A DNA stretch of 64,000 nucleotides from Escherichia coli (lineage in GTDB: Bacteria > Pseudomonadota > Gammaproteobacteria > Enterobacterales > Enterobacteriaceae), in the NCBI RefSeq assembly GCF_011045215.1, contig NZ_CP049201.1; one strand, written 5' to 3'. The stretch's first letter is position 1; each line of letters begins with the position of its first letter. The notes below the pieces were generated by a model that was given only the letters and a program-made list of their open reading frames with translations, had not been told where the DNA came from and searched no databases. The translations under genes were made by a program, and so were the position numbers. Shown piece after piece: positions 4,799-55,548 of the stretch.

Positions 4799-5665
4799 CT
4801 AAGCGAGGTTCTGGTTTTCAAATTGTTCCGGACTGAGGCCGCCACACCAACTGTGCCGCCGCCACCGATTGTAATCACATTCGATATAATTAAACACCGT
4901 TGCCCGCATTATTTCCCGGCTGATAAAGTGTTCTCCATGGATACATTCCACTTTCAGCGAATGAAAGAAGCTTTCCACGCAGGCATTATCGTAGCAGCAA
5001 CCTTTTGCGCTCATACTTCCACGCAGATTATGCCGCTTCAGTTGCGCCTGATAATCTGCTGAACAGTACTGGCCTCCACGGTCCGTGTGAACGATAACGT
5101 TCCGGGGCCTCTTACGCCGCCACAGCGCCATCTGCAGGGCATCGCAGGCCAGTTGCGCCGTCATGCGTGGCGACATTGACCAGCCAATAACGGCACGTGA
5201 CCACAGGTCAATGACCACTGCCAGATACAGCCAGCCTTCATCTGTACGTAAGTACGTGATGTCTCCTGCCCACTTCTGGTTCGGGCCACTGGCGTAAAAA
5301 TCCTGCTCCAACAGATTTTCTGACACAGGCAGGCCGTGTGCGCGGTAGCTGACCGGGCTGAACTTCCGGGAGGCCTTTGCCCTCAGTCCCTGACGGCGCA
5401 GGCTTGCCGCCACGGTTTTTACGTTAAAGGGGTAACCCTGAGCACGCAGTTCATCCGTCAGGCGTGGGGCACCGTAACGCTGTTTTGACCGGGTAAAAGC
5501 CGCGAGGACAACGCTGTCGCAGTGTTGGCGGAACTGCTGACGCGTGCTTATCCTTGTCCGCCGCTGACACCACGTATACCAGCCGCTGCGGGCCACCCGG
5601 AGCACGCGGCACATTGCTTTGATGCTGAACTCAGCCTGATGTTTTTCAATAAAGACATACTTCAT
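4799..5665 (-). CDS. insF: IS3 transposase OrfB (DDE integrase domain)
   Basis: 288-aa translation matches IS3 InsF as remembered ([24 protein letters not shown]...). Confidence 0.9.
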
Positions 5666-5970
5666 TTCAGGCGCTTCGCGAAGTATGTCGCGGCCTTTTG
5701 GAGGATAGCCAGCTCTTCATCCCGTTCTGCCAGCTGGCGTTTGAGACGTGCAATCTCGGTAGACATCTCCAGTTCACGTTCAGAAGACGTCTGCTGATTT
5801 TGCTGTTTACTGCGCCAGTTGTAGAGCTGTGATTCATACAGGCTGAGTTCACGGGCTGCGGCAGTAACACCGATGCGTTCAGCAAGCTTCAGGGCTTCAC
5901 TGCGAAATTCAGGCGAATGCTGTTTACGGGGTTTTTTACTGGTTGATACTGTTTTTGTCATGTGAGTCAC
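5662..5970 (-). CDS. insE: IS3 transposase OrfA (HTH)
   Basis: Translation [31 protein letters not shown]... matches IS3 InsE as remembered; overlaps orfB as expected for programmed frameshift. Confidence 0.9.
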
Positions 5971-6016
5971 CTCTGACTGAGAGTTTACTCACTTAGCCGC
6001 GTGTCCACTATTGCTG

Positions 6017-6175
6017 GGTAAGATCACATCGCTATTAATATTTTGACGAATGATAAGGTATTCAAGGCAGGGTTAAGACGTAAGATGCGAAAAGCAGCCA
6101 TGGACAGAAACTATCTCGCGTCAGTACTTGCGGGGAACTGGCTTTCGTAATCTTGCCCTGATCCCGATAGCGGTC
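6017..6175 (+). pseudogene. ISAs1-family (H-repeat) transposase 3' fragment
   Basis: Nucleotide similarity to 18355-18490 (catcgctattaatatt...caaggcagg...gactacctcgcgtcag), encodes [20 protein letters not shown]. Confidence 0.6.
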
Positions 6176-6906: not shown

Positions 6907-7191
6907 ATGCCCACAGCAGCCAGACTCAGCGATAAAGGCACCCAGCATGACGGTTATTATGAGACCACCATTATTGCAGGCTCCTCCACCGTCTTTATTG
7001 ATGGTATGCCCGCCGCCCGTCAGGGCGATCCGCTGACACCGCATTCCAAACCTGACCATCCCCCTCACCCCCGTAAAATCGCAGGCGGCTCTGCCACTGT
7101 CTTTATTGACGGTAAACCTGCCGCCAGAACCGGCGATGCCATTGACTGTGGCGGCGTGGTTATCGGTGGCGGCACGGTAAATATAGGCTGA
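6907..7191 (+). CDS. PAAR-domain protein (T6SS spike tip)
   Basis: Two repeats of the PAAR motif (FIDGMPAARQGD, FIDGKPAARTGD), about 95 aa, directly upstream of vgrG. Confidence 0.8.
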   Translation: MPTAARLSDKGTQHDGYYETTIIAGSSTVFIDGMPAARQGDPLTPHSKPDHPPHPRKIAGGSATVFIDGKPAARTGDAIDCGGVVIGGGTVNIG

Positions 7192-7211: not shown

Positions 7212-9611
7212 ATGCCCTCAGAAGGATTACGTTTCACGCTGTCGGTGGACGGTATCGTGGAGATGGCGACGGCGGTGGTGAGCTTCCGTCTGTACCAGCA
7301 CCACTGCACGCCGTTCATCCTGGATGTGGATATCGCCAGCGGGCTGTCTGACCTGACGGCGGAGGATTTTCTGGAGAAGAGCGCGGTGCTGACGGTCTGG
7401 CAGGGTGATATCCCGCAGCGTTACGTCAGCGGTATCGTGACGGAGGTGCAACTGGGGGAGAACAACGACTGGCAGATGCGTTATTCCCTGAGCATCAGCC
7501 CGCCGCTGTGGCGGGCAGGGTTACGGCAGAACTTCCGTATCTTCCAGCAGCAGGACATCCAGACGATATCAGCACAGCTTCTGAGAGAGAACGGAGTGAC
7601 GGCATGGATGCCGCTGTTTTATGAAGACCATCCGGCGCGGGAGTTCTGTGTGCAGTACGGGGAAAGCGACCTGGCGTTTCTGGCGCGGCTGTGGGCGGAG
7701 GAGGGGATTTTCTTCTTTGAGCGGTTTGCGGCGGACAGTCCGGAGCAGAAGCTGACGCTGTGCGACGATGTGGCGGGGCTGTCACAGGCGGGAGAGCTTC
7801 CGTTTAACCCGGACACATCGGCAGGAGCGGAGACGGAGTGTCTCAGTACGTTCCGTTATGAGGCGCATGTCCGCCCGTCGTCGGTGCAGAGTCAGGATTA
7901 CACGTTTAAGGTGCCGGACTGGCCGGGGATGTATGAGCAGCAGGGTGAGAACCTGAACGGACAGCTGGCGCAGTACGAGATATTTGATTATCCGGGAAGG
8001 TTCAAGGATGAGCAGCACGGCAAGGATTTCACGCTGTACCAGATGGACAGCCTGCGCAGTGATGCGGAAAAGGCCACAGGGCAGAGTAATTCACCGAAGC
8101 TGTGGCCGGGAACGCGGTTTACGCTGACGGGGCATCCGCAGAAGATGCTGAACCGTGAATGGCAGGTGGTACAGAGCATACTGTCAGGAAGCCAGCCGCA
8201 GGCGCTGCACGGCAGCCAGGGGAGGGGAACCACGCTGGGAAATCAGTTAGAGGTGATACCGGCAGACCGGACGTGGCGTCCACGGCTGCAAAGCAAACCG
8301 AAGGTGGACGGGCCGCAGAGTGCCATTGTGACCGGGCCGAAGGGTGAGGAGATATTCTGCGACGAACATGGCCGGGTACGGGTGAAGTTCCACTGGGACC
8401 GTTATCACGGGATGACGGAGGCGAGTTCATGCTGGGTGCGGGTATCGCAGGCGTGGGCGGGGCCGGGGTTCGGTAACCTGGCGATACCGCGGGTGGGCCA
8501 GGAGGTGATTGTTGACTTCCTGAACGGCGACCCGGACCAGCCCATCGTCACGGGACGGACCTACCATGAAGATAACCGCTCCCCGGGCGACCTGCCGGGA
8601 ACGAAGACGCAGATGACGATACGGTCGAAGACCTATAAAGAAAGCGGATTTAACGAGTTGCGGTTTGAAGACGCCACCAGTAATGAGCAGGTGTATATCC
8701 ACGCGCAGAAGAACATGGATACGGAGGTGCTCAACGACCGGACAACGGATGTGAAGCATGACCATACGGAGACCATTGGTAACGACCAGAAGATAACGGT
8801 GGTGAAGGGGCAGACGGTTGAGGTCGGGACCAGAAAAGAAGGAGGCCACGACCAGAGTATCACGGTGGCGAACGACCGGAGCATAACGGTACGTAACGAC
8901 CAGACGCTGAAGGTGACAAATGACCGGACGGTGAGCGTGAGTCACGATGACGGTCTGTACGTCAGAAATGACCGTAGGGTGACGGTGAAAGGGAAGCAGG
9001 AGCATAAGACGACGGGTAACCACATCAGCCTGGTGGAGGGGAAGCACAGCCTGGAGGTGAAGGGGGACCTGGCGGAGAAGGTGAGTGGCGCGCTGGGGAT
9101 AGAAGTGGACGGGGATATCGTGCTGGAGAGCAGCAGCCGGATAAGCCTGAAGGTGGGTGGCTCGTTTATCGTCATTCAGCCGGGCGGAGTGGATATTGCC
9201 GGGCCGAAGATAAACCTGAACGGTGGGGGCAGTGCGGGGACACCGGTGGGGACGATGCAGCCGGCGGTGCTGGAGGCTCCGGAGGATGAGAGCAGTGATG
9301 ATGGCAGTGATGACTCCGGAGAGGATAGTGGCAATCCCGCAGGGAGTGACGGAGGAGGTGATGGCGGTGACGATGAAGATGATCCTGAAAAATATACCCT
9401 CCAGTTCCATTTTACGGACGATGACGGGATACCGTATTCAGAGACGCAGTATATTGCCTTTTTTGAGGATGGCACACAGACGCGTGGTGAAACAGACAGA
9501 GAGGGATATACAGAAATATTTTATACAGATACAGCACAGGAAATTAAAGTCCAATTGTTATTTTCGGATGCTTTTTATATTGAGCCGGAGGGGCATTATG
9601 GCAGGGAATAA
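7212..9611 (+). CDS. vgrG: T6SS spike protein VgrG with acidic linker and C-terminal extension
   Basis: 799 aa; gp27/gp5-like core, beta-helix repeats (NDRT.. repeats), acidic stretch EDESSDDGSDDSGEDSG, then about 70-aa C-terminal tail. Confidence 0.9.
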   Translation: MPSEGLRFTLSVDGIVEMATAVVSFRLYQHHCTPFILDVDIASGLSDLTAEDFLEKSAVLTVWQGDIPQRYVSGIVTEVQLGENNDWQMRYSLSISPPLWRAGLRQNFRIFQQQDIQTISAQLLRENGVTAWMPLFYEDHPAREFCVQYGESDLAFLARLWAEEGIFFFERFAADSPEQKLTLCDDVAGLSQAGELPFNPDTSAGAETECLSTFRYEAHVRPSSVQSQDYTFKVPDWPGMYEQQGENLNGQLAQYEIFDYPGRFKDEQHGKDFTLYQMDSLRSDAEKATGQSNSPKLWPGTRFTLTGHPQKMLNREWQVVQSILSGSQPQALHGSQGRGTTLGNQLEVIPADRTWRPRLQSKPKVDGPQSAIVTGPKGEEIFCDEHGRVRVKFHWDRYHGMTEASSCWVRVSQAWAGPGFGNLAIPRVGQEVIVDFLNGDPDQPIVTGRTYHEDNRSPGDLPGTKTQMTIRSKTYKESGFNELRFEDATSNEQVYIHAQKNMDTEVLNDRTTDVKHDHTETIGNDQKITVVKGQTVEVGTRKEGGHDQSITVANDRSITVRNDQTLKVTNDRTVSVSHDDGLYVRNDRRVTVKGKQEHKTTGNHISLVEGKHSLEVKGDLAEKVSGALGIEVDGDIVLESSSRISLKVGGSFIVIQPGGVDIAGPKINLNGGGSAGTPVGTMQPAVLEAPEDESSDDGSDDSGEDSGNPAGSDGGGDGGDDEDDPEKYTLQFHFTDDDGIPYSETQYIAFFEDGTQTRGETDREGYTEIFYTDTAQEIKVQLLFSDAFYIEPEGHYGRE

Positions 9612-10401
9612 TAATACTAGTGGGACTTCACAACCCGAGTCGCAAGTATGTGTAGTACCGCAAAAAATTACAAATAAATTTAAAATAATGATGAGTAAGG
9701 CTTGTAAAGCACAGAAAATGGTTTTATTGAAAAGAGCAGATGATATTATGTCATGGGAGGGGGAACAACAACGAGATTTTATTAAAGTTTTTGGCCTTAA
9801 AGGCGAGGACATTATAAAAATCAGAAAGGTTGGGGAAGATACTGGGAAACGAATGCAAGCGAGACTATTCATAATGGATGGCATCAGACAAATAATGACG
9901 ATTGCAAATGGTTTGACGATCGAAAGCTATAAAGATTATACGAACTGCAATGAATTTGCTGCTTTTATTAGTCCACATCTTGATCCTCCTTACATTGTAA
10001 ATATCGGAGCGCATTTTGAATACAGACATGGTATAAAACAGTCGGTTACAGGTAGAGACTCTCATGTAAGTACACTTTGCCATGAAATGTCCCATATATT
10101 TTGGTATTGGGGTGACAATCAAAAAGGTGGTATGTGGACTCAGGATTATACGGGTATTAATAAGTTCGCAACAAGTAATAAGGATGAAGTTAGCTATGAG
10201 AAACATGTTTCAGTGGCTAATGATCTGGTTACATTGCGTAAAGATCAGTTATTTGAGAATGCATATAATGTTGAAAGATATTTTTATATAAAATTAAATG
10301 ATGAAGATATTGAAGCTCAAGATGAGAATATGTTAGCAAAAAAAGTAGAGGATAAAATAAAAGAGATAGAAAAATGTTTTGATGAGTTGATGGGGAAATA
10401 A
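9598..10401 (+). CDS. putative T6SS effector, HExxH zinc-metallopeptidase-like
   Basis: Start overlaps vgrG stop by 14 nt; HEMSH motif (LCHEMSHIFWYW); AT-rich versus GC-rich vgrG; the longer listed ORF 9223-10401 is an in-frame read-through of vgrG sequence. Confidence 0.6.
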   Translation: MAGNNNTSGTSQPESQVCVVPQKITNKFKIMMSKACKAQKMVLLKRADDIMSWEGEQQRDFIKVFGLKGEDIIKIRKVGEDTGKRMQARLFIMDGIRQIMTIANGLTIESYKDYTNCNEFAAFISPHLDPPYIVNIGAHFEYRHGIKQSVTGRDSHVSTLCHEMSHIFWYWGDNQKGGMWTQDYTGINKFATSNKDEVSYEKHVSVANDLVTLRKDQLFENAYNVERYFYIKLNDEDIEAQDENMLAKKVEDKIKEIEKCFDELMGK

Positions 10402-10402
10402 G

Positions 10403-11242
10403 ATGAAGAGGTTGGCTTTCTATAATCTAAATTATGTTGTACTGATGGTTTTTTTTCTTTGTTTTTTGCCATTATCTATTGCAATTGCAATAGATAATGA
10501 GAATCTTTTTGTAAAAAAATACAGATTCGGTTTTGAACGAAGAAATGACAATGGGAAACCAATTATTTATCTTAGCCATAATTTAGCGCCAGAGGAAAAT
10601 ATAAGTAATGAATTAACAAATGATGTTGTTGTTAAATTGGTGGTTAAGCCACATGCTGAAAATATTTTAGCTACTATAACTTTTTATAACAGTAGTACTA
10701 AATCGTATTTTCTCCCCAGAATATATTATCCAAAGAACTTCCAAAAAGGAAATGGAGATGTATTTGATGCTTTGTGTGATGACGAATTCTTGATTACATC
10801 AGGAAATATTAGCTTAGACTATCTAGGAGGCTTTTGTCCCTTTGAGCTTGATTTGAATTTGAGCCGATGGGTGGAAATTACGGCAGGTAAAAAAATATCT
10901 TTTGATGTAAAATTGAATGATATGCATTCATTTCTCCCCAGTTTAAATAATTATCATATAAAAACATTAAACTACAAACTTGTTAGGAGAAAATGGTTTG
11001 TATTAAAATCAATTAATGAAACATTCCTCTCTATTTTGATGAAAAGATACTCATGTAATGAATATGATTTTAGAGCTATATCATTTAGTGGAGAGGGATG
11101 TGATAATTATGAATTTGATAAAAATACGTTTTTTTTTGTTAATCAAATATTAGATAAAGATGATGAGCAACATTCTGTTCATATTAGGTCTAATGAATTT
11201 TCCATCAATATCGATGGAAGCTTGGTAAAGCAACCTTATTGA
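10403..11242 (+). CDS. putative cognate immunity protein (exported or membrane-anchored)
   Basis: Starts 2 nt after effector stop; N-terminal hydrophobic signal/anchor (VVLMVFFLCFLPLSIAIA); AT-rich. Confidence 0.5.
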   Translation: MKRLAFYNLNYVVLMVFFLCFLPLSIAIAIDNENLFVKKYRFGFERRNDNGKPIIYLSHNLAPEENISNELTNDVVVKLVVKPHAENILATITFYNSSTKSYFLPRIYYPKNFQKGNGDVFDALCDDEFLITSGNISLDYLGGFCPFELDLNLSRWVEITAGKKISFDVKLNDMHSFLPSLNNYHIKTLNYKLVRRKWFVLKSINETFLSILMKRYSCNEYDFRAISFSGEGCDNYEFDKNTFFFVNQILDKDDEQHSVHIRSNEFSINIDGSLVKQPY

Positions 11243-11299
11243 TTAAAATGTATCGCAGGTTTTATTTTCTGTAATGCTGGTGCATGTGCGTAAATATTT

Positions 11300-11730
11300 C
11301 TTAAGAGCCGGAAACACCTCTTCCGCCTTTATCGACGATAAACCTACCGCCAGAACCGGTGATGCCATTGACTGCGGTGGCGTGGTTAAAGGTGGAGGGC
11401 GATGTGGTGCTGGAGAGCAGCAGCCGGATAAGCCTGAAGGTGGGCGGCTCGTTTGTGGTCATCCATTCAGGGGGCGTGGACATCGTCGGGCCGAAAATCA
11501 ATCTCAATAGCGGCGGTAGTCCGGGAACGCCGGTGCCGACGCTGCAACCGGCGGTTCTGAAAGCGCTGGCAGATGATAAAAGTTTAGCGGCTGAGCAAAA
11601 TGATAGTAATGCATCGTCCGATCAGAATGATAACAACGATGAGGGTGAGGAAGCGCCAGAAAAATCGGTGTGTAAGGAGTGCCTGAAAAGGGCGCAAGAA
11701 GCCGCCGCCGTTTTTGCGCCTCGTGGATAA
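11300..11730 (+). pseudogene. PAAR 3' fragment fused to vgrG 3' fragment (deletion scar of a second PAAR-vgrG copy)
   Basis: 11310-11398 is near-identical to PAAR 3' end (7090-7180); 11398-11560 near-identical to vgrG 9120-9280; a distinct C-terminal tail follows. Confidence 0.7.
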
Positions 11731-11736
11731 GGGAGA

Positions 11737-12506
11737 ATGACAATGATAACAGTATCGCCACACGCTACCGATCAAGACAAATATATTATCTGGCTGAAGC
11801 AAGCTGAATCATTCTGTTCTGCCGCTGGTTTGGATTACATAGATGTGCTTGTTGACCAGGCTGGAACCGACCAACCTTTGCAAAATGATATGCTTCATCT
11901 GTCGCCAGCCATTCACTGGTATGCCCTGTTTGAAGGAACGCCTGAAGCTGAGACGATGGAGTATTCCCCTGTAGTGTTACGCCTGTACTTTGCGCTCAGT
12001 AGCCATCGCAAATTTCTGGCACAACTGATGGCGTCATTTGCTGATACGCCGCGTCTTACTTTGTTGATATCCCCTCTTACATTCGACCTGCTGGGCGGCA
12101 TCTTCAGGTATTGTCACAGGTTCAGTGGGAAGAACAGACCGGATTGCTGCGTTACTATGATAATCGGGTGTTCCCTTTACTGTTCACACATGTTTTGACT
12201 AACGAGCAGCAGGCGACATTTACTGATATTGCGTTGTTCTGGAGCTGGTTAGACCGTGATGGTGAGATTAACTGGAAATCAGGAAGTTTTTCACCAGAAC
12301 GCAGGCTTACTGACAACCCGGAGATGAATCGGGTGGATGATGTACAGGTGGGATTGATGGGCTGTATCTGCGACGCTGAAGTCCTGATGAAGGAGAAAGC
12401 AGTCAGTGAACTCAGTCAGGAAAGCTATTTTGCCCACTGTCTTGATATTGCTTTCAGGGCCAATGACGCGAAATATTTCGGAGCTTTGCGGGACTTCGAA
12501 GGATAA
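11737..12506 (+). pseudogene. hypothetical T6SS accessory protein (adaptor-like position), apparently frameshifted
   Basis: Two overlapping ORFs (11737-12198, 12111-12506) in different frames, directly after the vgrG tail fragment. Confidence 0.35.
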
Positions 12507-12819
12507 TATTGTGGTGATGTACGGGGAGATTTATCTGTTTAAAAGTCCGTAGCTGTTAATATCAAGAGATAATCGTGAAATAAACGGAAAATCAAGCTCG
12601 ACATGTAATGGTAGTATCCATCATGTTGCATTTGTGTTCGATCGTAATGTCAGTTCACTTGGCTGCAATATATTTTGCGTAATATCATCAATGCTCTGTC
12701 GATATTCCAATGTGTGACAATCGAAAGATATGCATTTTATTTGCTTCTATGTCAAAACTTTATTGTCGTAGAAACAATACCCATCAATTAAAATCTCTCA
12801 AAGTAAAAGAACCAGCAAC

Positions 12820-13362
12820 ATGTCCAGCAAAATAAGAAATGGAATGAATATAACAAAAGTAGTTAAAGGCTGTCTGGTATTAATTTTGATGGTGATTTCT
12901 GGTTGCTCAGCAGATAATTACGACGATTATACTGCAGGTGATCTCCGGGCAATAAATCATATTAAAGGTATCAGTATTAATTGGTTCACCGTAAATGGTT
13001 ATCGGGTCCATGGTTTGGGCGGTGGATATTGCTGCATAATGTTACCAAAGAAGTGGCATTCTGGATTAAAAGCCCGGATCGAGTGGGAAGTAGACCCGAC
13101 CCCCCTTGAACCTATTGCAATGAAAAAAGAAGGTTTTGGCTATGAAGAAGATGCTTATGCTAAACATGCTGCAAATTATCAAAAATATAAAGTAATTGTT
13201 GACATCCCGGAATACGGCGCTGAACGTTGTGGCCTGACCGTTCATTTTCTGCCGTGTAATCAGATTAAAGTGACAACCGTCTGCGAGGGCTATGGCACAC
13301 CGAATTATCCTATCAAAGAACCCCGCGAGATGAAGGAACCTGCAACATGTCCAGCAAAATAA
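12820..13362 (+). CDS. lipoprotein, candidate Tle1 immunity (Tli-like)
   Basis: Lipobox ISGC after signal peptide; Cys-rich periplasmic domain; 3' end overlaps tle1 start. Confidence 0.5.
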   Translation: MSSKIRNGMNITKVVKGCLVLILMVISGCSADNYDDYTAGDLRAINHIKGISINWFTVNGYRVHGLGGGYCCIMLPKKWHSGLKARIEWEVDPTPLEPIAMKKEGFGYEEDAYAKHAANYQKYKVIVDIPEYGAERCGLTVHFLPCNQIKVTTVCEGYGTPNYPIKEPREMKEPATCPAK

Positions 13363-15440
13363 GTGGTCTGGCTTTTCCGTGTTATGCCCCCCCGGTGTTC
13401 CCTGAAGATGGGCGATTAATATTATCTGAAGCGCAGGTAAACGCGAACTACCTAAAACAAATCAATAAAACAGAAGAGCACAAAACCAACTGTAGTAAAC
13501 AGGCTGGATTTAGAATTGGCTTTACGTGTAATCAAAGTATGCATATTAGTCTGTTTTTTGATGGTACAAATAATAATGAATATAATGACACTCCTGGACA
13601 CCCAACCAATATTGCCAAACTGTTTCATACGACCTATCAGAACGCAGAAGAACAGGGATATTTTAACTACTATATACCGGGTGTAGGCACACCATTTCCC
13701 AAGATAGGTGAAATGGATTACAGCAACAGCGGGCTGGAGTTCGCTACTGGTGGTGAAGATCGAATTAATTGGGCATTATTACGCCTCGTGGATGCCCTGA
13801 GCTATTCCATTGACCCTTCCCATAAGCGACTGGATGATAATGTGGCAAAAGAGCACATTCCTCTTATGCGCGCTCCCTGGCCTATGACTGGTGAAGTGAA
13901 TCGTCGCAATGTGATTAACCCCTACCTGGAAAAATTACAGGGACTGTTAGAGCAAGCCAGTCCGCGCCTGCTAAACGTAAAGCTGTTTATCTACGGATTT
14001 TCCCGTGGCGCAGCGGAAGCACGAACTTTTGTTAACTGGTTGACTCAGTTAGCTTGCCCGCAGGAGCAACAGGTGATGCTGGCCGGGTTAGCTGTCAGTA
14101 TTGAGTTTTTGGGGCTGCTGGATACCGTAGCTTCTGTGGGGGCGGCGCATGTTTTACCGGGCGCTGCCGGTCATATGGGATGGGCCGATAGTACTCAGCA
14201 ACTCCCTGATGAGAGGCAGTTTCCCGGCCTGATTAAATGCTGCCGCCACTTCGTTGCCGCGCATGAGCAGCGGCTGTGCTTTCCGCTGGATTCAATCCGT
14301 CGTCCAGACGGAAATTATCCTTTAAATGCAGAGGAAATTATCTATCCGGGGATGCACTCTGATGTCGGTGGTGGCTATCCCGTTCGCGATCAGGGGAAGT
14401 CCTGTGGTGACTCAGGCGAAATTCTTTCTCAGATAGCACTGCATGATATGTATCTTGCTGCATTTGATTCAGGAGCACCACTTGCTGTTTATTCTAAATT
14501 TGTTACTCCATTAATAAAAGGTGTGTCGCCTCTGCGAATTATGAGTCCTTCTAGCGTAAAGGAATTTACGATTGCTAATTCATTAACAAAACGCTTCAAC
14601 ATCTGGCGACAAACGCTGCTGAACACCACCTTGCAGGGTACAGAAGAAATGATTGATACGAGGGAAGGTTATCACTCCTATCAACTTGCCCAGGTTCTTG
14701 AAAGCGCAATTAGCGATCAGATCGGCTGGATCACCGCCTGGCGTATCGGTCGCTATGCGAATAACAGCCTTCTTGTGCAACCTTTTTATATTAAGGCGCC
14801 ACAGCTGGATAAAGATGGACTTGATAAAGAGGCTAAAGCGCGTAAAGAACAAATGGAAAATATTGAAAAAGAGCGGGCGAACAAGCAGAAAGGGAATGGC
14901 ACACTTGATGAAAGTAATCAGGGCATTCCTATCCTTGACCCAACCAATGCTCAGTATCAGTTGCGAGAGGCAGCCCGAGAATTTCAGAGCGATTATAAAG
15001 GATGGACGCGCGATATTAACGGCAGCGTCATGGAGAAAGCCATTCAGATTCTTGTGGATGTCATTCCTAAATATCCGGTGTATCTGATTAATGGCGATGA
15101 TGAAGCAAAAGAATATCAGCAAATTAAGGCTATGGGAGACGGACTCTATCCACAATTTTTTATTGATTCACTGGGAACGGGAACGCGTACTCAGCCATGC
15201 GCTGAATTACTGGCCCTCTATGATGACCAGGTTCACGACTCCCGCGCCTGGTTTATGCAAAGTTCGCTGGGTGGACGTGAACCCTGGGGCGGTTATTTTC
15301 GCTACCGCATGATTTACTTCGGTGATGAGGCTAATAAAGAGCTGAAGCTAATCTCTGCAGATGGCAAAGTTGTTGGCGATCAGCCCACATCCAACCGGGT
15401 CATTTATTGGATGGAATCGAAAACGGTGAGCCGAGGTTAA
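13347..15440 (+). CDS. tle1: T6SS phospholipase effector, Tle1 family (DUF2235 alpha/beta hydrolase)
   Basis: 697 aa; GxSxG lipase motif in YGFSRGA; located in the vgrG island. Confidence 0.75.
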   Translation: MSSKISGLAFPCYAPPVFPEDGRLILSEAQVNANYLKQINKTEEHKTNCSKQAGFRIGFTCNQSMHISLFFDGTNNNEYNDTPGHPTNIAKLFHTTYQNAEEQGYFNYYIPGVGTPFPKIGEMDYSNSGLEFATGGEDRINWALLRLVDALSYSIDPSHKRLDDNVAKEHIPLMRAPWPMTGEVNRRNVINPYLEKLQGLLEQASPRLLNVKLFIYGFSRGAAEARTFVNWLTQLACPQEQQVMLAGLAVSIEFLGLLDTVASVGAAHVLPGAAGHMGWADSTQQLPDERQFPGLIKCCRHFVAAHEQRLCFPLDSIRRPDGNYPLNAEEIIYPGMHSDVGGGYPVRDQGKSCGDSGEILSQIALHDMYLAAFDSGAPLAVYSKFVTPLIKGVSPLRIMSPSSVKEFTIANSLTKRFNIWRQTLLNTTLQGTEEMIDTREGYHSYQLAQVLESAISDQIGWITAWRIGRYANNSLLVQPFYIKAPQLDKDGLDKEAKARKEQMENIEKERANKQKGNGTLDESNQGIPILDPTNAQYQLREAAREFQSDYKGWTRDINGSVMEKAIQILVDVIPKYPVYLINGDDEAKEYQQIKAMGDGLYPQFFIDSLGTGTRTQPCAELLALYDDQVHDSRAWFMQSSLGGREPWGGYFRYRMIYFGDEANKELKLISADGKVVGDQPTSNRVIYWMESKTVSRG

Positions 15441-16275: not shown

Positions 16276-18337
<2,062 letters not shown>

Positions 18338-44845: not shown

Positions 44846-45670
44846 TCAGGCGGTGAAAGTACCAATAAAGGTTTCTACTTTGCTGTCCTTGAATTTCTCA
44901 ACAAGCAGATCACGAAATTCGTTAGCCATTTCTTCCTGCACCGCCTCCAGCTGAATAATGCGCAGAACCAGTACCGGACGATCGCCAGTGATAATGCTGA
45001 GGCGTAATTTAAACGGACGTTCTTTCAGACCTTCAAACGGAATGCATTTAAATTCAAATGCCACTGGCATAATGTCTTTGGTCTTCGCTTCGACAGACTC
45101 CATCAGGGAGCGTTTGCCGCTGAAGTCATTATCTTCAAAATCAGCGGTCTGGTTTGCTTCAATCGTGATTTTACGGACCGCCGCAGCCGCTTTTGTTGCC
45201 TGAATGGTGTCACCATTAGCATCAAAGCCCACAAGGTAGTCGGCCCAGTCTTCAATCCATTCTGCCAGTGATTTCTGGGAGTTACGCTCGCCATTAACAG
45301 ACAACAGAGCAGAGAACGGTGCTGTCTTTTTCAGTTTGAGAGTGGCGGTGTTATCTGCGTGACCTGGTTCATCAATAGTACCCAGGTTAAGCACACTGAC
45401 GGCACGCATATTATCAGCATCGATAAAGCAGCGGGTGCCTTCATCTGCAAGATCTTTAGAATAACGGGTAAAGTCATCGATGCTGGCAGTGGAAAGCGCA
45501 CCACGGAAACGGAAGCGATTTAAATTAAATTTTTCCAGATCATGAATGCGGAAATTCTCAGGCAATGCCACAGCATCGGCACCAATCTTACTGATAATTT
45601 CATTAACACCCTGAGCAGAAATAAGGGCATGGATTTGATTAATTGCGGTTGCGTCTAAGTTCTGAGACAT
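44846..45670 (-). CDS. phage protein, DUF2303 (YfdQ-like)
   Basis: 274 aa, resembles CPS-53 YfdQ as remembered. Confidence 0.55.
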
Positions 45671-45735
45671 AATAAGTCCTCACTATATAAAGATATTCAG
45701 TGATGAGATAAATAATCAGTTTATTACGAACGATA

Positions 45736-46098
45736 TTAACGACCTGCTGCGCGGAGTTTTCCGTCAGGTTCACCGGCAAGAGTCAGTAATTGTCCCTGGT
45801 CTTCCTGCAGAATAGTCAGGCGACCACCGCGATTGACATACATCGGCGTTTCGGTGGTGTCTTCTTCGGAAATTTTCCCGCGGTTAGTTGGGCGAACATA
45901 TGAGAGTTTGTGTTTGATTTTCACACGGTTCTCATCAAACGGTTCGATTTCCAGATTGAGTGAGACCTTCCCTTTGGTTTTCGTGTTCATCACACCGGAA
46001 GCGACCTCACTGAGAACTGCGCCGATTTTGGTTTCAAATACGCCGCCGTCCAGCTCCCCGATAAATGCCTGCACATCAGTACTGCGTTCGCTAGCCAT
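45736..46098 (-). CDS. hypothetical phage protein
   Basis: 120-aa ORF from MASERSTDVQ; the longer listed ORF extends upstream without support. Confidence 0.4.
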   Translation of the reverse strand: MASERSTDVQAFIGELDGGVFETKIGAVLSEVASGVMNTKTKGKVSLNLEIEPFDENRVKIKHKLSYVRPTNRGKISEEDTTETPMYVNRGGRLTILQEDQGQLLTLAGEPDGKLRAAGR

Positions 46099-46536
46099 TT
46101 TGCTGCTCCTCATCATATCGACCCTGCAAGGTCGGTTGGTTTCTCCACAAAACAGAGAAGAACACCTGCGGTGGCAGCCGCCCGGATGGATTGGGTTATG
46201 AGCCCGTCGTCCGGTGATGCTCTTCTCTGTTTTGCAAAAAAGGACGGTACCAGCCGGAAGCAAGGGTACAAACTGGTACCGCCAGGACTACACACAGCAT
46301 AAAGTTGTGGTGCCGGGTGCCTCCCGGTGCCTGGCGAAGGTTGCACACCAGGCGGGTGGGTATCCACAGAAGGTCGACTGTCAGCCTCAACCTTAACCCG
46401 CGTGCGCTGAGCCGCATTCACCACAACGCTAAGGATTCTCTTTGGTTGAAAATACTTAGCTGTTATGTGCCTGTCTTTTCACCACTTCAGGCTCGGTGGT
46501 ATCCTTTTAAGCCCGTATACATAAAAGGAAAATCAA

Positions 46537-46782
46537 ATGACTTTTGATGAAAAAGAACTTGATAATGCAATTAATAAAATCATCGTAACGTCGCTCTTTT
46601 CCTGTCTCAGCGACACTCAGCAGAAACAGTTCTACGAATCGGCTTTCAACATGATCGAGCGTTGTTGTTTCTGCGATGCCGACGAGTTACCTGAAAAAAT
46701 CAGGAAACAGTTGGCTGATGCTCTTCGAGTGCGACTTTCTGACCAATTTTCTGAAATGTGCTCTCCGAATTTGGACAAATAG
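46537..46782 (+). CDS. hypothetical small protein
   Basis: 81-aa ORF with GGA-type RBS upstream; overlaps a minus-strand ORF, so only one is likely real. Confidence 0.3.
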   Translation: MTFDEKELDNAINKIIVTSLFSCLSDTQQKQFYESAFNMIERCCFCDADELPEKIRKQLADALRVRLSDQFSEMCSPNLDK

Positions 46783-47168
46783 AAAAAGGCCATTTCCATT
46801 CAGGGTCTGATGGAAATACTTCAGCCTGTTCCAAAGCACGGCGTAAAGAGAACACAACTCCAGCCATAATCTGATGTTTCCCATTGGTCCAGCTATCGCC
46901 GCTCTGATCTACAGGGGCGGCTATGTCGTATGACCAAACGACTTCACAGTTATTGTTTAAAATCTGGACTTTCATTTCATACACCTGCTTTAACATGAGT
47001 GCCTAGTGGCACAACATGACTCAACGAATCATCCTGGATTTCATATGCCCCAGGCGGCTACTTCGTGGGCGTCCTGCCTGTTCGTTGTTTCTTTTGGGTA
47101 CATTATGTATCTCAAAGGTACATTGTCAAGTATAAAAAAACCTGCCGAAGCAGGTTCATAAACATTGA

Positions 47169-47843
47169 TTAGGCTTTGATTTTGTATCTTCTTGGTTTTC
47201 CTGAGAAAATCACTGTACCAATTATAGAGCAATTACCGTTGATCTTAATGTAAGGCTCAGGCCAGTTTGGGTTTAACGCTTTGAGATAACGCTGTGTCCC
47301 ATCTTCTATCAACCTTTTGAAGGTGGTTTCGCCTGTATCGTGCATCAATGCAATAACGTCGTCACCGTGGCAGGCAGGTACTTCAGGATCGACAAAAATC
47401 ATGTCTCCCGGGCGGTACTCATCAATCATTGAATCACCTATCACCCGCAAGATATAAGTCATTTCCCCACAGGGTACAGGGCAGGGATACGTTTCTGCTG
47501 TGCTCAAATCAACCTCAGAATATCCAACTTCTTTCCATGCTCCGGCCTGTACCCATGATATGACAGGGACTAATGTGATTTGTTTATTAGTGATTGAAAC
47601 ATCAGGTTTTTTTGTGATGTTCGTTGTCTGGTGTTCTTGATCGAGCCATCCGACAGGCAGGTCGAAACATTTTTCGATGTGTCGTGCCATGCTGTCACCG
47701 ATATTTTTAGTAGCACCATCTCCCATAAACCTGCTGGTCTGGGTTGGCTCGCGATCAATCATAGTGGCAAAGGAAGAATTCCCGCCAACACCATCTCTCA
47801 GTTTTCTGGCGTTAGACCGCCGGATGTCATGGATTGTTTTCAT
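47169..47843 (-). CDS. cI: phage repressor CI (HTH plus S24 LexA-like peptidase domain)
   Basis: 224 aa; C-terminal S24 domain with Ser (GDSM) and Lys; divergent from cro. Confidence 0.85.
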   Translation of the reverse strand: MKTIHDIRRSNARKLRDGVGGNSSFATMIDREPTQTSRFMGDGATKNIGDSMARHIEKCFDLPVGWLDQEHQTTNITKKPDVSITNKQITLVPVISWVQAGAWKEVGYSEVDLSTAETYPCPVPCGEMTYILRVIGDSMIDEYRPGDMIFVDPEVPACHGDDVIALMHDTGETTFKRLIEDGTQRYLKALNPNWPEPYIKINGNCSIIGTVIFSGKPRRYKIKA

Positions 47844-47933
47844 AACGAAATTAAAACCCTTGTACCGTTAAGGTACAAGTATCTTGAAGGTTCATTTCAA
47901 TCATGTAATATGTACACCGGAGGTACATATTGT
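47844..47933. promoter_or_regulatory. cI/cro divergent promoter-operator region
   Basis: Inverted repeats with GTAC cores: cttgtaccgttaaggtacaag (47857-47877) and atgtacaccggaggtacat (47911-47929). Confidence 0.5.
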
Positions 47934-48134
47934 ATGAAAGCGTATTGGGACTCTTTAACCAAAGAACAGCAGGGCGAGTTGGCCGGAAAAGTTGGCTCAA
48001 CACCTGGCTACTTACGGCTGGTTTTCAATGGCTATAAAAAAGCCAGTTTTGTGCTGGCTAAAAAACTTGAGCAATGCACGTCAGGTGCAATTACGAAATC
48101 TGACTTAAGACCGGATATCTATCCGAAAGATTAG
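47934..48134 (+). CDS. cro: Cro-like repressor
   Basis: 67-aa ORF from MKAYWDSL, divergent from cI; the longer listed ORF overlaps cI antisense. Confidence 0.65.
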   Translation: MKAYWDSLTKEQQGELAGKVGSTPGYLRLVFNGYKKASFVLAKKLEQCTSGAITKSDLRPDIYPKD

Positions 48135-48165
48135 CAGAACACTTTCAATTTTTAACCACAGAACG

Positions 48166-48729
48166 ATGAGGCTAACCGTGGGTAAGCATCACTGGAAAAT
48201 AGAAAAACAGCCTGAGTGGTACGTGAAAGCTGTCAGAAAAACTATCGCGGCGTTGCCGGGTGGTTACGCTGAAGCGGCTGACTGGCTCGATGTAACAGAA
48301 AACGCTTTATTCAACCGCCTTCGTGCAGATGGCGATCAGATTTTCCCGCTGGGATGGGCAATGGTTTTACAGCGTGCTGGTGGCACTCACTTCATTGCTG
48401 ATGCTGTGGCGCAGTCTGCAAATGGCGTCTTTGTGTCTCTTCCTGACGTCGAGGATGTGGACAACGCCGATATCAACCAACGCCTGCTGGAAGTCATTGA
48501 ACAGATCGGCAGTTATTCAAAACAGATTCGTTCAGCAATTGAAGACGGTGTAGTGGAACCGCATGAGAAGACAGCAATTAACGACGAGCTGTACCTCTCA
48601 ATTTCGAAGCTGCAGGAGCATGCAGCACTGGTCTACAAAATTTTTTGCATTTCAGAAAGTAATGACGCCCGCGAGTGTGCAGCTCCGGGCGCCGTGGCGT
48701 GTCGTGACTGTGGAGAAACTAACGCATGA
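48166..48729 (+). CDS. phage regulatory protein (CII-like / YdaT-family position)
   Basis: 187 aa immediately after cro; product assignment by position only. Confidence 0.4.
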
Positions 48730-49073
48730 ACAGTTTAACAACACACTACCGTCGCTCGCAACTGATTGCGCTTCCTGTACCGGGTGGAAAAGCGAAGGTG
48801 GAGTATTGCTATGCAGTAAATGTACCAGGTGACAGGGAAATTGTAACCCACAGCTTTGCAGAGTGGGCTGTGGGTGATTTCAACCGGCAGAAGGAGACAG
48901 TCCTTTGCGACAAGTTAACCGCTGGTTCAAAGATCACTACGGAGTGCCCGTCAGAGTCATTCGTTGGGAGCCGGAAACACAACGTGTTATCTACCTCCGC
49001 GAAGGCTATGAGCATGAGTGCTTCAGCCCGCTCGAACAGTTTCGTCGTAAATTCAGGGAAATAGAGGTCGGTC

Positions 49074-50015
49074 ATGAGCACTAAATTAACCGGCTATGTA
49101 TGGGATGGTTGCGCTGCATCAGGCATGAAATTATCCAGCGTGGCAATTATGGCCCGCCTGGCTGATTTCAGTAATGACGAAGGTGTGTGCTGGCCATCAA
49201 TTGAAACCATTGCCCGCCAGATTGGCGCGGGAATGAGTACCGTCAGAACGGCTATCGCACGGCTGGAAGCAGAAGGCTGGTTAACGCGTAAGGCGCGTCG
49301 CCAGGGTAACCGCAATGCGTCGAATGTTTATCAGCTTAACGTTGCGAAGCTTCAGGCAGCGGCATTTTCTCAACTGTCAGATTCTGACCCGTCAAAATCT
49401 GACGCATCAAAATCTGACCCGTCAAAATTTGATGCGTCGAAATCTGGCAAAAAAGCGGGTTTTCACCCGTCAGAATCTGGCGGGGATCCGTCAGTAAAAT
49501 CAAAACATGATCCGTCAGATAAAAAAACTTCTCGTCCGGACGCTTCGCAACCGGACACGCAGACGGCTGAACAGGAGTTTTTAACTCGCCATCCTGATGC
49601 GGTTGTATTCAGCCCTAAAAAGCGCCAGTGGGGAACGCAGGATGATTTGACCTGCGCACAGTGGCTCTGGAAAAAAATCATCGCCCTGTACGAGCAGGCC
49701 GCCGAATGTGACGGCGAGGTGGTTCGTCCCAAAGAACCGAACTGGACAGCCTGGGCAAACGAAATTCGCCTGATGTGTGTGCAGGATGGTCGTACTCATA
49801 AACAAATCTGCGAGATGTACAGCCGCGTCAGTCGCGATCCGTTCTGGTGCCGTAACGTGCTCAGCCCGTCGAAGCTGCGGGAAAAATGGGATGAGCTTTC
49901 CCTGCGCTTATCGCCGTCCGTCAGCACGTACACCGAAAAACGCGAAGACCCGTACTTCAAAGCCAGTTACGACAACGTGGACTACAGCCAGATCCCGGCA
50001 GGATTCAGGGGGTGA
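49074..50015 (+). CDS. replication initiation protein (lambda O-like) with internal iteron-encoded repeats
   Basis: HTH N-terminus (GMSTVRTAIARLEAEGWLT), repeated SDPSKSDASKSDPSKFDASKS segment. Confidence 0.7.
   Translation: MSTKLTGYVWDGCAASGMKLSSVAIMARLADFSNDEGVCWPSIETIARQIGAGMSTVRTAIARLEAEGWLTRKARRQGNRNASNVYQLNVAKLQAAAFSQLSDSDPSKSDASKSDPSKFDASKSGKKAGFHPSESGGDPSVKSKHDPSDKKTSRPDASQPDTQTAEQEFLTRHPDAVVFSPKKRQWGTQDDLTCAQWLWKKIIALYEQAAECDGEVVRPKEPNWTAWANEIRLMCVQDGRTHKQICEMYSRVSRDPFWCRNVLSPSKLREKWDELSLRLSPSVSTYTEKREDPYFKASYDNVDYSQIPAGFRG
49375..49445. repeat. tandem about 18-bp iterons, candidate phage replication origin
   Basis: tcaaaatctgac(c/g)c(g/a) repeated 4 times inside the O-like gene. 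Confidence 0.5.
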
Positions 50016-50506
50016 GCATGAGTCTTTTGAATGACGTTCAGAAATTCATTGAAGCCCATCCGGGCTGTACTTCCGGAGATATTGCGGATGCTTTTGCCGG
50101 TTACTCACGGCAGCGCGTTCTGCAGTCAGCAAGCAAGTTACGTCAGAGTGGGCGTGTGGCTCACCGTTGTGAAGGAGATACACGCAGACATTTCCCGCGC
50201 CTGACTGAGAGAGCGCAGGAACCGGAACCACAACCAGTTCGTGAAACCAGACCTGTGCGCAATTTCTATGTCGGCACTAACGATCCCCGTGTGATTTTGT
50301 GCCTGACCCGCCAGGCGGAAGAACTGGAGTCCAGGGGCTTATACCGTCGTGCTGCAACCGTGTGGATGGCGGCATTCCGTGAAAGCCACTCCCAGCCAGA
50401 ACGAAACAATTTTCTGGCGCGTCGTGAGCGGTGCTTACGGAAAAGCAGCAAGCGCGCTGCATCGGGTGAAGAGTGGTATCTGTCAGGGAATTACGTGGGG
50501 GCTTAA
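50012..50506 (+). CDS. phage protein with PerC-like C-terminal domain
   Basis: AEELESRGLYRRAATVWMAAFRES resembles the PerC/Pch signature. Confidence 0.45.
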   Translation: MSMSLLNDVQKFIEAHPGCTSGDIADAFAGYSRQRVLQSASKLRQSGRVAHRCEGDTRRHFPRLTERAQEPEPQPVRETRPVRNFYVGTNDPRVILCLTRQAEELESRGLYRRAATVWMAAFRESHSQPERNNFLARRERCLRKSSKRAASGEEWYLSGNYVGA

Positions 50507-51159
50507 TGAGTAATAAATATTGCCAGGCGCTGGTGGAACTGCGGAACAAACCAGCCCATGAACTGAAGGAAGTGGGCGATCAGTGGCGCACGCCGGACAA
50601 CATTTTCTGGGGAATTAACACCCTGTTTGGCCCGTTTGTTCTGGATCTGTTCACTGACGGTGATAACGCCAAATGTGCCGCGTATTACACGGCGGAAGAC
50701 AACGCGCTGGCGCATGACTGGTCAGAACGTCTTGCGGAGCTTAAAGGTGCTGCCTTTGGTAATCCCCCATACAGCCGCGCCAGTCAGCATGAGGGGCAAT
50801 ACATCACCGGCATGCGTTACATCATGAAACATGCCAGTGCCATGCGTGATAAGGGCGGGCGCTATGTTTTCCTGATCAAAGCTGCCACCAGCGAAGTGTG
50901 GTGGCCGGAAGATGCAGATCATATTGCTTTTATTCGCGGGCGTATTGGTTTTGAACTGCCTGTCTGGTTTATCCCGAAAGACGAGAAGCAGGTACCGACA
51001 GGAGCTTTTTTCGCTGGTGCTATTGCTGTTTTTGACAAGACCTGGAAGGGACCGGCAATCAGCTACATCGGGCGCGATGAACTTGAGGCATGTGGTGAGG
51101 CGTTTCTGGCGCAGGTTCGCCAGCAGGCGGAAAAACTGGTCAGGGAGATGGCGGCATGA
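50506..51159 (+). CDS. phage DNA N6-adenine methyltransferase (Dam-like)
   Basis: NPPY motif (FGNPPYSRA); start at MSNKYCQ. Confidence 0.75.
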   Translation: MSNKYCQALVELRNKPAHELKEVGDQWRTPDNIFWGINTLFGPFVLDLFTDGDNAKCAAYYTAEDNALAHDWSERLAELKGAAFGNPPYSRASQHEGQYITGMRYIMKHASAMRDKGGRYVFLIKAATSEVWWPEDADHIAFIRGRIGFELPVWFIPKDEKQVPTGAFFAGAIAVFDKTWKGPAISYIGRDELEACGEAFLAQVRQQAEKLVREMAA

Positions 51160-51482
51160 CGACGTTAACTCAATGCCAGCAGCAGGTGCTGGATATGCTG
51201 ATTTCTTATCAGAAAGAACGTGGCTTCCCGCCAACCAATCAGGAGGTGGCAACCATGCTGGGATACCGTTCGGTGAATGCAGCGGTGGAGCATCTTCGCG
51301 CACTGGAGAAAAAAGGCGTCATCACGATAAAGCGTGGCGTGGCCCGGGGGATAACGCTTCATACCGCGGTGAAGGACGACGACAGCGAGGCGGTCGGGAT
51401 TATCCGCGCACTGCTTGCCGGTGAGGAAAACGCAAGGCTGCGTGCAACCCACTGGTTACATGAGAGGGACCTGAAAGTATGA
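51156..51482 (+). CDS. LexA-like DNA-binding domain protein
   Basis: N-terminus resembles LexA winged helix (QQQVLDMLISYQKERGFPPTNQEVATMLGYRSVNAAVEHLRALEKKGVI). Confidence 0.6.
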   Translation: MTTLTQCQQQVLDMLISYQKERGFPPTNQEVATMLGYRSVNAAVEHLRALEKKGVITIKRGVARGITLHTAVKDDDSEAVGIIRALLAGEENARLRATHWLHERDLKV

Positions 51483-51868
51483 AGCTGATCCTGCCTTTTC
51501 CGCCCAGCGTGAACACGTACTGGCGACACCCCAACAAAGGGGCGTTTGCTGGTAAGAGCCTGATAAGCGCGGCGGGGCGAAAATTCCAGAGCGCGGCGTG
51601 CGCAGCAATAGTTGAGCAGTTACGTCGTCTGCCGAAACCAACGTCGGCACCTGCTTCAGTGGAGATCGTGTTGTTTCCTCCGGATAACCGGATCCGCGAT
51701 CTGGACAACTATAACAAGGCGCTGTTTGACGCCCTGACCCACGCGGGTGTGTGGGAAGACGACAGTCAGGTGAAAAGAATGCTGGTGGAGTGGGGGCCGG
51801 TTATCCCGGAAGGGAAGGTCGAGATCACTATCAGTAAGTACGAGAAAACGGCGGGTGCAGCCGCCTGA
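51479..51868 (+). CDS. rusA: Holliday junction resolvase RusA
   Basis: 129 aa, conserved DLDNYNKALFDAL region. Confidence 0.85.
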   Translation: MKLILPFPPSVNTYWRHPNKGAFAGKSLISAAGRKFQSAACAAIVEQLRRLPKPTSAPASVEIVLFPPDNRIRDLDNYNKALFDALTHAGVWEDDSQVKRMLVEWGPVIPEGKVEITISKYEKTAGAAA

Positions 51869-51887
51869 TTAAGAGGAGAAACGAAGT

Positions 51888-52685
51888 ATGAATAATCTGA
51901 TGGTCATTGATGGTATTGAAGTTCGTCGTGATGCTTATGGGCGTTACAGCCTGAACGATCTGCACAGGGCTGCCGGTTCTCAGGATAAGCATAAGCCTGC
52001 ATTCTGGCTCCGCAATGAGCAAACCGAACGTTTAATAAGCGAGTTGCAGATTTGCAACTCGGTCAATATAGAGCCAGTTAACGTTAGTCGTGGCGGAAAT
52101 AACCAGGGGACGTATGTCTGCAAAGAACTGGTGTATGCCTATGCAATGTGGATCAGCCCGTCATTCCATCTGAAGGTGATCCGTACTTTCGATATGGTAA
52201 CCAGCGCACCGGAAAAATTATCCGGGCAGGCTGCTGACAAGATGCAGGCTGGCGTGATTCTGCTGGACTTTATGCGCCGGGAGTTAAACCTGTCTAACTC
52301 ATCTGTGCTTGGGGCCTGTCAGAAACTCCAGGAGGCTGTTGGCTTACCGAATCTGGCACCACGCTATGCCATTGATGCTCCTGCTGACGCGCCTGATGGC
52401 TCAAGTCGCCCTACGCTGTCGCTGAGTGCACTGCTGAAACAGTATGGTATCCGCCTGACAGCTAATCAGGCATATCACCAGATGGCGAAGCTGGGGATCG
52501 TTGAACAACGCGAACGATACAGCCGTACCGCGATTAACAACATCAAAAAATTCTGGTCGCTGACGGCGAAAGGCTGCATGTTCGGCAAGAACATTACCAG
52601 TCCTGCAAATCCGCGCGAGACGCAGCCGCATTTCTTCGAATCCCGATTCCCTGAGCTGTTAAAGCTGCTCGATACCGTTCATTGA
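51888..52685 (+). CDS. KilA-N domain protein (antirepressor-like)
   Basis: N-terminal KilA-N-like region (VIDGIEVRRDAYGRYSLNDLHRAAG). Confidence 0.5.
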   Translation: MNNLMVIDGIEVRRDAYGRYSLNDLHRAAGSQDKHKPAFWLRNEQTERLISELQICNSVNIEPVNVSRGGNNQGTYVCKELVYAYAMWISPSFHLKVIRTFDMVTSAPEKLSGQAADKMQAGVILLDFMRRELNLSNSSVLGACQKLQEAVGLPNLAPRYAIDAPADAPDGSSRPTLSLSALLKQYGIRLTANQAYHQMAKLGIVEQRERYSRTAINNIKKFWSLTAKGCMFGKNITSPANPRETQPHFFESRFPELLKLLDTVH

Positions 52686-52686
52686 G

Positions 52687-53682: not shown

Positions 53683-53696
53683 TTTGGTGGAGAAAG

Positions 53697-54065
53697 TTGA
53701 TGCGTGATATTCAGATGGTTCTTGAGCGTTGGGGAGCATGGGCGGCGAGTGATAGTTCAGGCGTTGACTATTCACCTATAGCTGCTGGGTTTAAGGGACT
53801 TCTTCCCTATACCAGCAAGAAACGCTTGGCTTGTTCGGATAGTGATGCATTAATTATTGAAGGTTGTCTTGCTCGTCTAAAGCAAAAAAGACCTTATGAG
53901 CATTCGCTTCTTGTGGCACATTATTTATACAGAATATCCAAGCGTAAGATTGCAAAGGCGCGTGGAAAGGATGAGAAATTGATACGTATAGAAATACAGC
54001 TAGCCGAAGGATTTATTGATGGCTGCCTTTCCATGCTAGATCTAACATTAGATTTGGACGTTTAA
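53697..54065 (+). CDS. Q: late-gene antitermination protein Q
   Basis: 122 aa with LERWGAWA motif; positioned before the lysis genes. Confidence 0.65.
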   Translation: MMRDIQMVLERWGAWAASDSSGVDYSPIAAGFKGLLPYTSKKRLACSDSDALIIEGCLARLKQKRPYEHSLLVAHYLYRISKRKIAKARGKDEKLIRIEIQLAEGFIDGCLSMLDLTLDLDV

Positions 54066-54066
54066 T

Positions 54067-54091
54067 AATACGCCCCATGCAGGGGCGTATT
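54067..54091. terminator. bidirectional hairpin terminator between Q and the KAP NTPase gene
   Basis: Perfect inverted repeat aatacgcccc-atgca-ggggcgtatt flanked by A/T runs. Confidence 0.5.
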
Positions 54092-54093
54092 AT

Positions 54094-55425: not shown

Positions 55426-55487
55426 AATATAAACCTATTAACTCCTACAGTAAAAAACGAATAATACGACTTTGGGATTAAAAATCA

Positions 55488-55516: not shown

Positions 55517-55548
55517 CTGTTAAGAGTGGTTACTTCGCCACACAGCTT

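Follow-up and report, generated by a model that had tools for sequence, protein, structure and literature searches.

The plus strand of this 64,000-nt stretch of Escherichia coli DNA (hereafter the window, that is, the whole of the DNA analysed) carries, between the 3' end of a vgrG gene and the genes for a lipoprotein and a Tle1 phospholipase, two open reading frames, 11737-12198 (153 aa) and 12111-12506 (131 aa, with a TTG start), which lie in different frames and overlap by 88 nt (12111-12198). These frames and coordinates, pointed out in an earlier note, are those of the ORF list. The locus raises the question of whether we are looking at two small genes or at the halves of a broken one and, if the latter, what the gene encoded, whether its lesion is genuine and what the loss means for the module in which it lies. 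We are highly confident that the region is a single tla1 gene, encoding the adaptor of Tle1, that was inactivated by the loss of one G, and that this is a real allele of single origin. The features on which the argument turns are the following.

11731..11735, + strand: Shine-Dalgarno sequence GGGAG, read from the sequence.
11743..12506, + strand: tla1, gene of the DUF4123 adaptor/chaperone of Tle1, in the window a pseudogene of 764 nt against 765 nt in intact alleles, from the alignment with 33F4, FEX669 and MS1170 and the profile scores of the repaired translation.
11743..12198, + strand: 5' ORF, 118 native and 33 out-of-frame residues (151 aa), with its stop at 12196-12198.
12094..12096, + strand: frameshift site at codon 118/119, GGG against GGGG in intact alleles (CTGCTGGGGCGGC to CTGCTGGGCGGC).
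12111..12506, + strand: 3' ORF, C-terminal half of Tla1, 131 aa from TTG, with no ATG.
12820..13362, + strand: tli1 (DUF3304 lipoprotein, Tli1a-family immunity), intact, 180 aa; NF053804 199.1 bits (cutoff 110).
13347..15440, + strand: tle1, encoding a T6SS phospholipase effector of 697 aa; intact, and its translation shows the serine-lipase motif GFSRG.

That the two frames belong together is apparent from the profiles they match. On Pfam DUF4123 (PF13503, 119 positions) their products cover positions 4-87 and 85-117, and on the NCBIfam Tla1 profile NF053803 (245 positions) the 5' ORF matches positions 1-110 (89.6 bits) and the 3' ORF positions 109-232 (117.1 bits). Adjoining parts of the same profiles are thus matched by both, and the ORFs are therefore halves of one gene rather than a chance pair. 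As single fragments, both stay below the NF053803 cutoff and, at 23.5 and 17.9 bits, below the 25.8 bits of PF13503. The repaired 254-aa translation passes both: it scores 221.6 bits on NF053803, an equivalog model named "toxin Tle1 chaperone Tla1" with a cutoff of 200 (an intact homologue, from 33F4, scores 215.6), and 57.3 bits on PF13503 over residues 36-157, against a gathering cutoff of 25.8. The earlier note had placed the ORFs in the slot of an effector-specific adaptor or chaperone and left a DUF4123 identity unconfirmed; the two profiles bear out the former and now supply the latter. The gene context is likewise that of tla1, with a vgrG stub ending at 11730, tla1 starting at 11743, and tli1 and tle1 following. 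What the window copy lacks is the uninterrupted ORF of about 250 aa, which the 1-bp deletion has broken, and judged by its sequence it is a pseudogene within the Tla1 family, a non-working member.

The lesion itself can be placed precisely. When 11300-12900 was compared by megablast with 5,426 complete E. coli genomes, 67 of them covered most of the query, and in all 67 the gene is annotated either as "DUF4123 domain-containing protein" or, more recently, as "tla1: toxin Tle1 chaperone Tla1". When the window is aligned with three intact 765-nt alleles (33F4, FEX669 and MS1170), the sole indel is one G missing from CTGCTGGGGCGGC. Restoring it yields a 254-aa protein that differs from the 33F4 product at three residues and from the FEX669 product at six. 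Every aligned intact homologue is a single 254-aa ORF with GGGG, and intact relatives span 254-258 aa. The suspicion that the ORFs were one inactivated gene is thus upheld by the adjoining profile matches together with this single 1-bp gap, and the intact homologues upstream of tle1 that the earlier note had proposed to look for in other strains exist as the 254-aa ORFs of 33F4, FEX669 and MS1170. The break falls at residue 118, so that the encoded product ends inside the DUF4123 domain, about two thirds of the way through it, and the whole C-terminal half is gone. The repaired Tla1 had no sequence match among PDB chains at E<=1, and hence there was no solved structure in which to place the break. 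A 71-nt query over the site matched 68 complete E. coli genomes, none of them at 100%, and the window allele is therefore absent from that complete-genome collection; among the matches listed (15), all were at 98.6%, which corresponds to one difference.

The 5' frame can be opened at 11737, and an ORF with those coordinates is indeed present, but the functional start is most likely the ATG at 11743, two codons further in. The Shine-Dalgarno sequence lies 7 nt from this ATG and just 1 nt from 11737, RefSeq gives the 254-aa homologues a start that corresponds to 11743, and the codon equivalent to 11737 is AAG in FEX669 and MS1170. In the 3' frame, the sole purine-rich match is AGG, 2 nt from the TTG; with TTG as the only start and the ribosome-binding match so badly placed, separate translation seems unlikely, and the 131-aa product is probably not made. 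A promoter and terminator scan of 11200-13400 gave seven promoter-like sites, against 4.0 +/- 2.3 expected and thus no better than chance, and no terminators.

A one-base change in a run of G is a typical form of sequencing or assembly error, and it might be argued that the tla1 of this strain is in truth intact. Artefact frameshifts of this gene do exist. In the assemblies of P0008 and P0012, tla1 is apparently frameshifted by the loss of a C from a CCCC run, as inferred from the protein sequences, and tssC, vgrG, tli1 and tle1 are all fragmented as well; we rejected these two as independent inactivations of tla1 because the fragmentation of every surrounding gene marks error-rich assemblies, probably with homopolymer errors. 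It follows that tla1 frameshift calls are not to be trusted unless they have independent support. For the window allele, such support comes from 14 other contigs (L007-L020) drawn from 12 independent datasets, namely six NCBI assemblies (GCA_053564595.1, GCA_043872885.1, GCA_910665105.1, GCA_910665095.1, GCA_009901295.1 and GCA_009901285.1) and the Logan assemblies of six SRA runs (SRR11014969, SRR14062684, SRR10107306, SRR29525135, SRR8095702 and SRR31950803). All 14 carry the deleted form of the motif and none the intact form; the contig from SRR11014969 matches the window without a single difference along 4,574 bp (100% identity). Moreover, the run is just four bases long, and the neighbouring genes are full length both in the window and in the carrier contigs. 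We therefore regard an error as extremely improbable. The recurrence of one deletion in independent datasets beside full-length neighbours indicates, on comparison of the assemblies, that the frameshift is a real inherited allele common to a group of related strains. In seven carrier loci compared segment by segment, the 764-nt tla1, the stub and the intergenic region show no differences from the window, while vgrG differs by up to about 5% and the right flank by up to about 1.3%, a pattern that points to a single origin for a deletion now found on more than one flank haplotype.

A real deletion might still leave the gene functional, be it through programmed -1 frameshifting or slippage, or because the G run acts as a phase-variation switch for the loading of Tle1. 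The shift required is indeed -1, the frames overlap by the 88 nt given above, and the lesion lies in a short homopolymer. Against this, 12060-12198 holds no in-phase X XXY YYZ heptamer, as a programmed frameshift would call for, and the aligned homologues are uninterrupted, which, with the lack of an exact match among the 68 genomes, argues that the frameshift is not a conserved feature. Known contingency tracts run to about seven or more bases; the tract is far shorter, G3 here and G4 elsewhere, and the longest run in the gene is T5. Nor do G3 and G4 mix on the haplotype: G3 is present in each of the 14 other carriers, and tla1 is identical in the seven compared fully. Given a tract this short and no slippery heptamer in phase, we consider recoding and phase variation very unlikely. 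A further proposal, that the halves act as a split adaptor or as separate proteins, one binding VgrG through the N-terminal part and the other Tle1 through the C-terminal part, could draw on the finding that the binding activities of Pseudomonas aeruginosa Tla1 map largely to its N- and C-terminal parts (PMC13133936). Gene callers do report the 131-aa product, which RefSeq lists as protein WP_350472294.1, and an exact protein look-up found both the 151-aa and the 131-aa products in public collections. These entries come from the same 1-bp deletion loci, L007-L020, and not from separate full-length homologues of each ORF, which the earlier note had named as the outcome that would speak against a single gene; no independent full-length homologue of either half was found, the short database entries examined being this allele, other truncations or contig-end fragments. 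The break, moreover, lies within DUF4123 (residue 118 of 36-157) and not at a domain boundary, and the 3' frame lacks an ATG and its context for ribosome binding is poor, so that functional halves seem hardly credible. One tla1 gene, broken once and inherited since, is the reading we carry forward.

The effector and immunity genes downstream have fared better. The product of tli1 scores 86.3 bits on PF11745 and has the lipobox VISGC in its translation, which makes it a member of the Tli1a family; that of tle1 scores 90.6 bits on PF09994 and 200.5 bits on PF22137, and its 697 aa are the length of the full-length members of its cluster, as befits Tle1. With both genes intact, the module is not degraded overall. 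At 12806-12835, just before the single tli1 and overlapping its start, there is a 30-bp remnant that shares 93% identity with tli1 at its 3' end. Relatives carry two to three tandem copies of tli1, and from this comparison copies have evidently been lost in the window.

Upstream, the genes between the resident spike and tla1 record an earlier replacement, and the relevant features are these.

7212..9611, + strand: full-length vgrG, 799 aa, with the Pfam domains Phage_GPD, Phage_base_V and Gp5_trimer_C.
9598..10401, + strand: M35-family metallopeptidase gene, from the RefSeq annotation of the 33F4 homologue and a weak Aspzincin_M35 match.
10403..11242, + strand: gene for a 279-aa hypothetical protein, likewise from the RefSeq annotation of 33F4, that matches no family and whose hydrophobic N-terminus is predicted to be a signal or membrane segment.
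11359..11730, + strand: 3' stub of the cognate vgrG, reduced to its final ~114 codons, with the C-terminal tail ...EKSVCKECLKRAQEAAAVFAPRG still encoded.

The stub is 89% identical to residues 630-743 of the full-length VgrG (743 aa) whose gene precedes tla1 in FEX669, with a near-identical tail; on the equivalent stretch of 33F4, RefSeq annotates a VgrG without its N-terminus. The resemblance of the 799-aa VgrG to the stub stops at residue 689, beyond which its C-terminal extension differs, and the vgrG at 7212-9611 goes with the M35 peptidase module and not with Tle1. The peptidase gene overlaps the 3' end of this vgrG and the gene for the 279-aa protein comes next; the two probably serve as effector and immunity gene in the module that supplanted the Tle1 spike. 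A 72-bp segment at 11327-11398 shares 87.5% identity with the PAAR gene at its 3' end (7101-7172) and overlaps the start of the vgrG-like sequence at ~11384, an overlap which suggests that the stub is what an internal deletion left of a former PAAR-vgrG pair. At the nucleotide level, the DNA encoding the tail occurs once per genome in the 67 complete genomes and, in the loci whose annotation was read, it lies directly 5' of tla1; in genomes of the stub type other than that of the window there would therefore appear to be no second spike with a matching tail at the nucleotide level. The stub architecture is common to about twelve complete genomes, and tla1 is intact in both of those whose annotation was read (33F4 and GPT24-02), so that loss of the cognate spike was not quickly followed by loss of tla1. 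The earlier note spoke of the decay of an orphaned module: the module is orphaned from its own VgrG, whose tail survives only in the stub, and a sub-lineage has gone on to lose tle1 through Q103*, but in the window itself tle1 and tli1 are intact.

The remainder of the window is in keeping with a rearranged neighbourhood. PAAR and vgrG are its only T6SS genes of core type. The segment 6026-7400 contains the PAAR gene (6907-7191) and the 5' end of the vgrG that follows it; it matches, at 99.8% identity, an orphan PAAR-vgrG island that strain ET350 carries near yncG. Similarity to T6SS-1 relatives begins only at 7325, and the window lacks hcp and tssB, which in those relatives stand before vgrG. 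An IS3 element (4799-6026) abuts an ISAs1 fragment, with an unrelated island further left. Taken together, the ET350-like 5' part, the late onset of T6SS-1 similarity, the missing hcp and tssB and the IS3-ISAs1 junction suggest recombination or inversion between vgrG paralogues left of the tla1 locus. The same frameshift allele is found with hcp directly upstream of vgrG in three of the carrier loci (L007, L008 and L011, the last also with tssB), and loss of the T6SS core in the window was therefore a separate event. On the right, a 1,954-bp IS21-family element (16276-18229; istA 340 aa, istB 260 aa, ends TGTCA...TGACA), probably IS100-like by its size, is inserted in an ISAs1 remnant, is flanked by the 5-bp duplication GCCAC and is absent from every relative compared. 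Core backbone follows at 20000-44900 (fadE, pepD, frsA, proA and a flhA-like gene), with a best identity of 98.3% among the 5,426 complete genomes, which indicates a source strain from a poorly sampled lineage, and a prophage (terminase, portal, KAP NTPase and DUF968 genes) occupies ~45000-64000, downstream of the proA region.

Further losses are seen beyond the window. Two carrier loci (L019:1933-4026, from a contig seen in four samples, and L020:1855-3463, seen in SRR31950803 only) combine the frameshift haplotype with a nonsense mutation in tle1, C307T (Q103*), which is a further decay step in a sub-lineage. In a different lineage, the P0024 protein (L023:7001-8305) is a 434-aa in-frame vgrG'::'tla1 fusion, with vgrG to ...TETIGNDQKI and the second half of tla1 from SPLTFDLLGRHL...; at least 24 contigs carry it, the surrounding T6SS-1 locus being a relic in which tssM and VasL are present as fragments and tle1 is split, and this deletion fusion is an independent route to tla1 loss.

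We suggest the following account. In the intact system, the N-terminal DUF4123 domain of Tla1 would hold the C-terminal tail of the VgrG spike and its C-terminal domain the catalytic domain of Tle1, and the toxin would thereby be loaded onto the T6SS spike. Loss of one G from GGGG would leave 118 native residues followed by 33 unrelated ones and remove the Tle1-binding half, and the Tle1 of the locus would presumably no longer be loaded or fired. The module's own spike would have been lost earlier, when the vgrG-M35 peptidase-hypothetical module (7212-11242) took its place and left the stub with its tail. For a module already without its own spike, loss of the adaptor matters little, and the frameshift therefore most likely reflects neutral decay under relaxed selection after the loss of the cognate spike. 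The intact tli1 may still be useful against Tle1 fired by other strains. It is conceivable, though in our judgement unlikely, that the frameshift was selected and not just tolerated, the knock-out of the adaptor disarming the module while the immunity gene is kept. If so, an undocked Tla1-Tle1 would be costly, for instance by disturbing the loading of the resident spike or by keeping an active lipase in the cytoplasm; in a weaker variant of the same idea, the 151-aa fragment would still bind VgrG tails as a decoy. Neutral decay of tla1 is the reading we prefer, and under it the feature is of an already known kind, a lineage-specific pseudogene of a described family in a T6SS effector island, with nothing that a T6SS specialist would find unexpected. 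For annotation, the two ORFs are best treated as one tla1 pseudogene, and the Tle1 of the locus scored as probably not deliverable, with Tli1 immunity still in place. The locus also serves as an example of turnover in T6SS effector islands, in which the old spike, displaced by a newly arrived vgrG-effector module, is reduced to a stub, the adaptor goes next, some strains lose the toxin as well, and the immunity gene stays intact longest.

The closest systems for comparison are the intact E. coli alleles, which, like the window, lie next to yafV at the same chromosomal site and, unlike it, have GGGG and encode 254 aa. The 33F4 locus has the same stub architecture and 99.6% DNA identity over 1.6 kb, its product (WP_114006917.1) being the one that differs from the repaired protein at three residues. 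FEX669 and MS1170 share ~97% DNA identity over 1.6 kb and the product that differs at six (WP_000633876.1); unlike the window, they have the full 743-aa VgrG with a matching tail and two to three copies of tli1. Another E. coli system, the Sci-1 Tle1 of enteroaggregative strains, is likewise a Tle1-family phospholipase with a lipoprotein immunity protein and delivery on the VgrG C-terminus. According to Flaugnatti et al. 2016, it reportedly binds the C-terminal domain of VgrG1 directly and needs no DUF4123 adaptor, for which reason the dependence of Tle1 on an adaptor is not certain; the window locus differs from it in having an adaptor gene, as in P. aeruginosa.

Among DUF4123 proteins more broadly, Tap-1/TEC of Vibrio cholerae is a T6SS adaptor for a different cargo effector. 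Tap6 and Tap14 of P. aeruginosa are DUF4123 T6SS adaptors for other cargo effectors again (PMC13133936). By description, all three resemble the gene discussed here in sharing the Pfam domain and in being non-secreted adaptors encoded between vgrG and the effector. The nearest described counterpart is the protein in which Tla1 was named, PA3293 of P. aeruginosa. Its binding to the last ~20 residues of VgrG4a depends mainly on the N-terminal DUF4123 region, and that to the Tle1 catalytic domain mainly on the C-terminal part (e.g., R197 and D242), as shown by two-hybrid assays, co-purification and mutagenesis (PMC13133936). In the same system, Tle1 is neutralised by Tli1a, a DUF3304 lipoprotein of the outer membrane (PMC13133936). 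The P. aeruginosa locus has two copies of tli1 against one in the window, and the window gene, unlike its counterpart, is frameshifted at codon 118/119 behind a vgrG that is a 3' stub. The function of the E. coli protein is read by analogy, and from its family membership and gene context we infer that an intact Tla1 would serve as the Tle1 adaptor: the repaired protein passes the NF053803 equivalog cutoff and joins an N-terminal DUF4123 to a C-terminal domain as PA3293 does, and the order of the genes, vgrG, tla1, a DUF3304 tli1 and tle1, is the same in both loci (PMC13133936).
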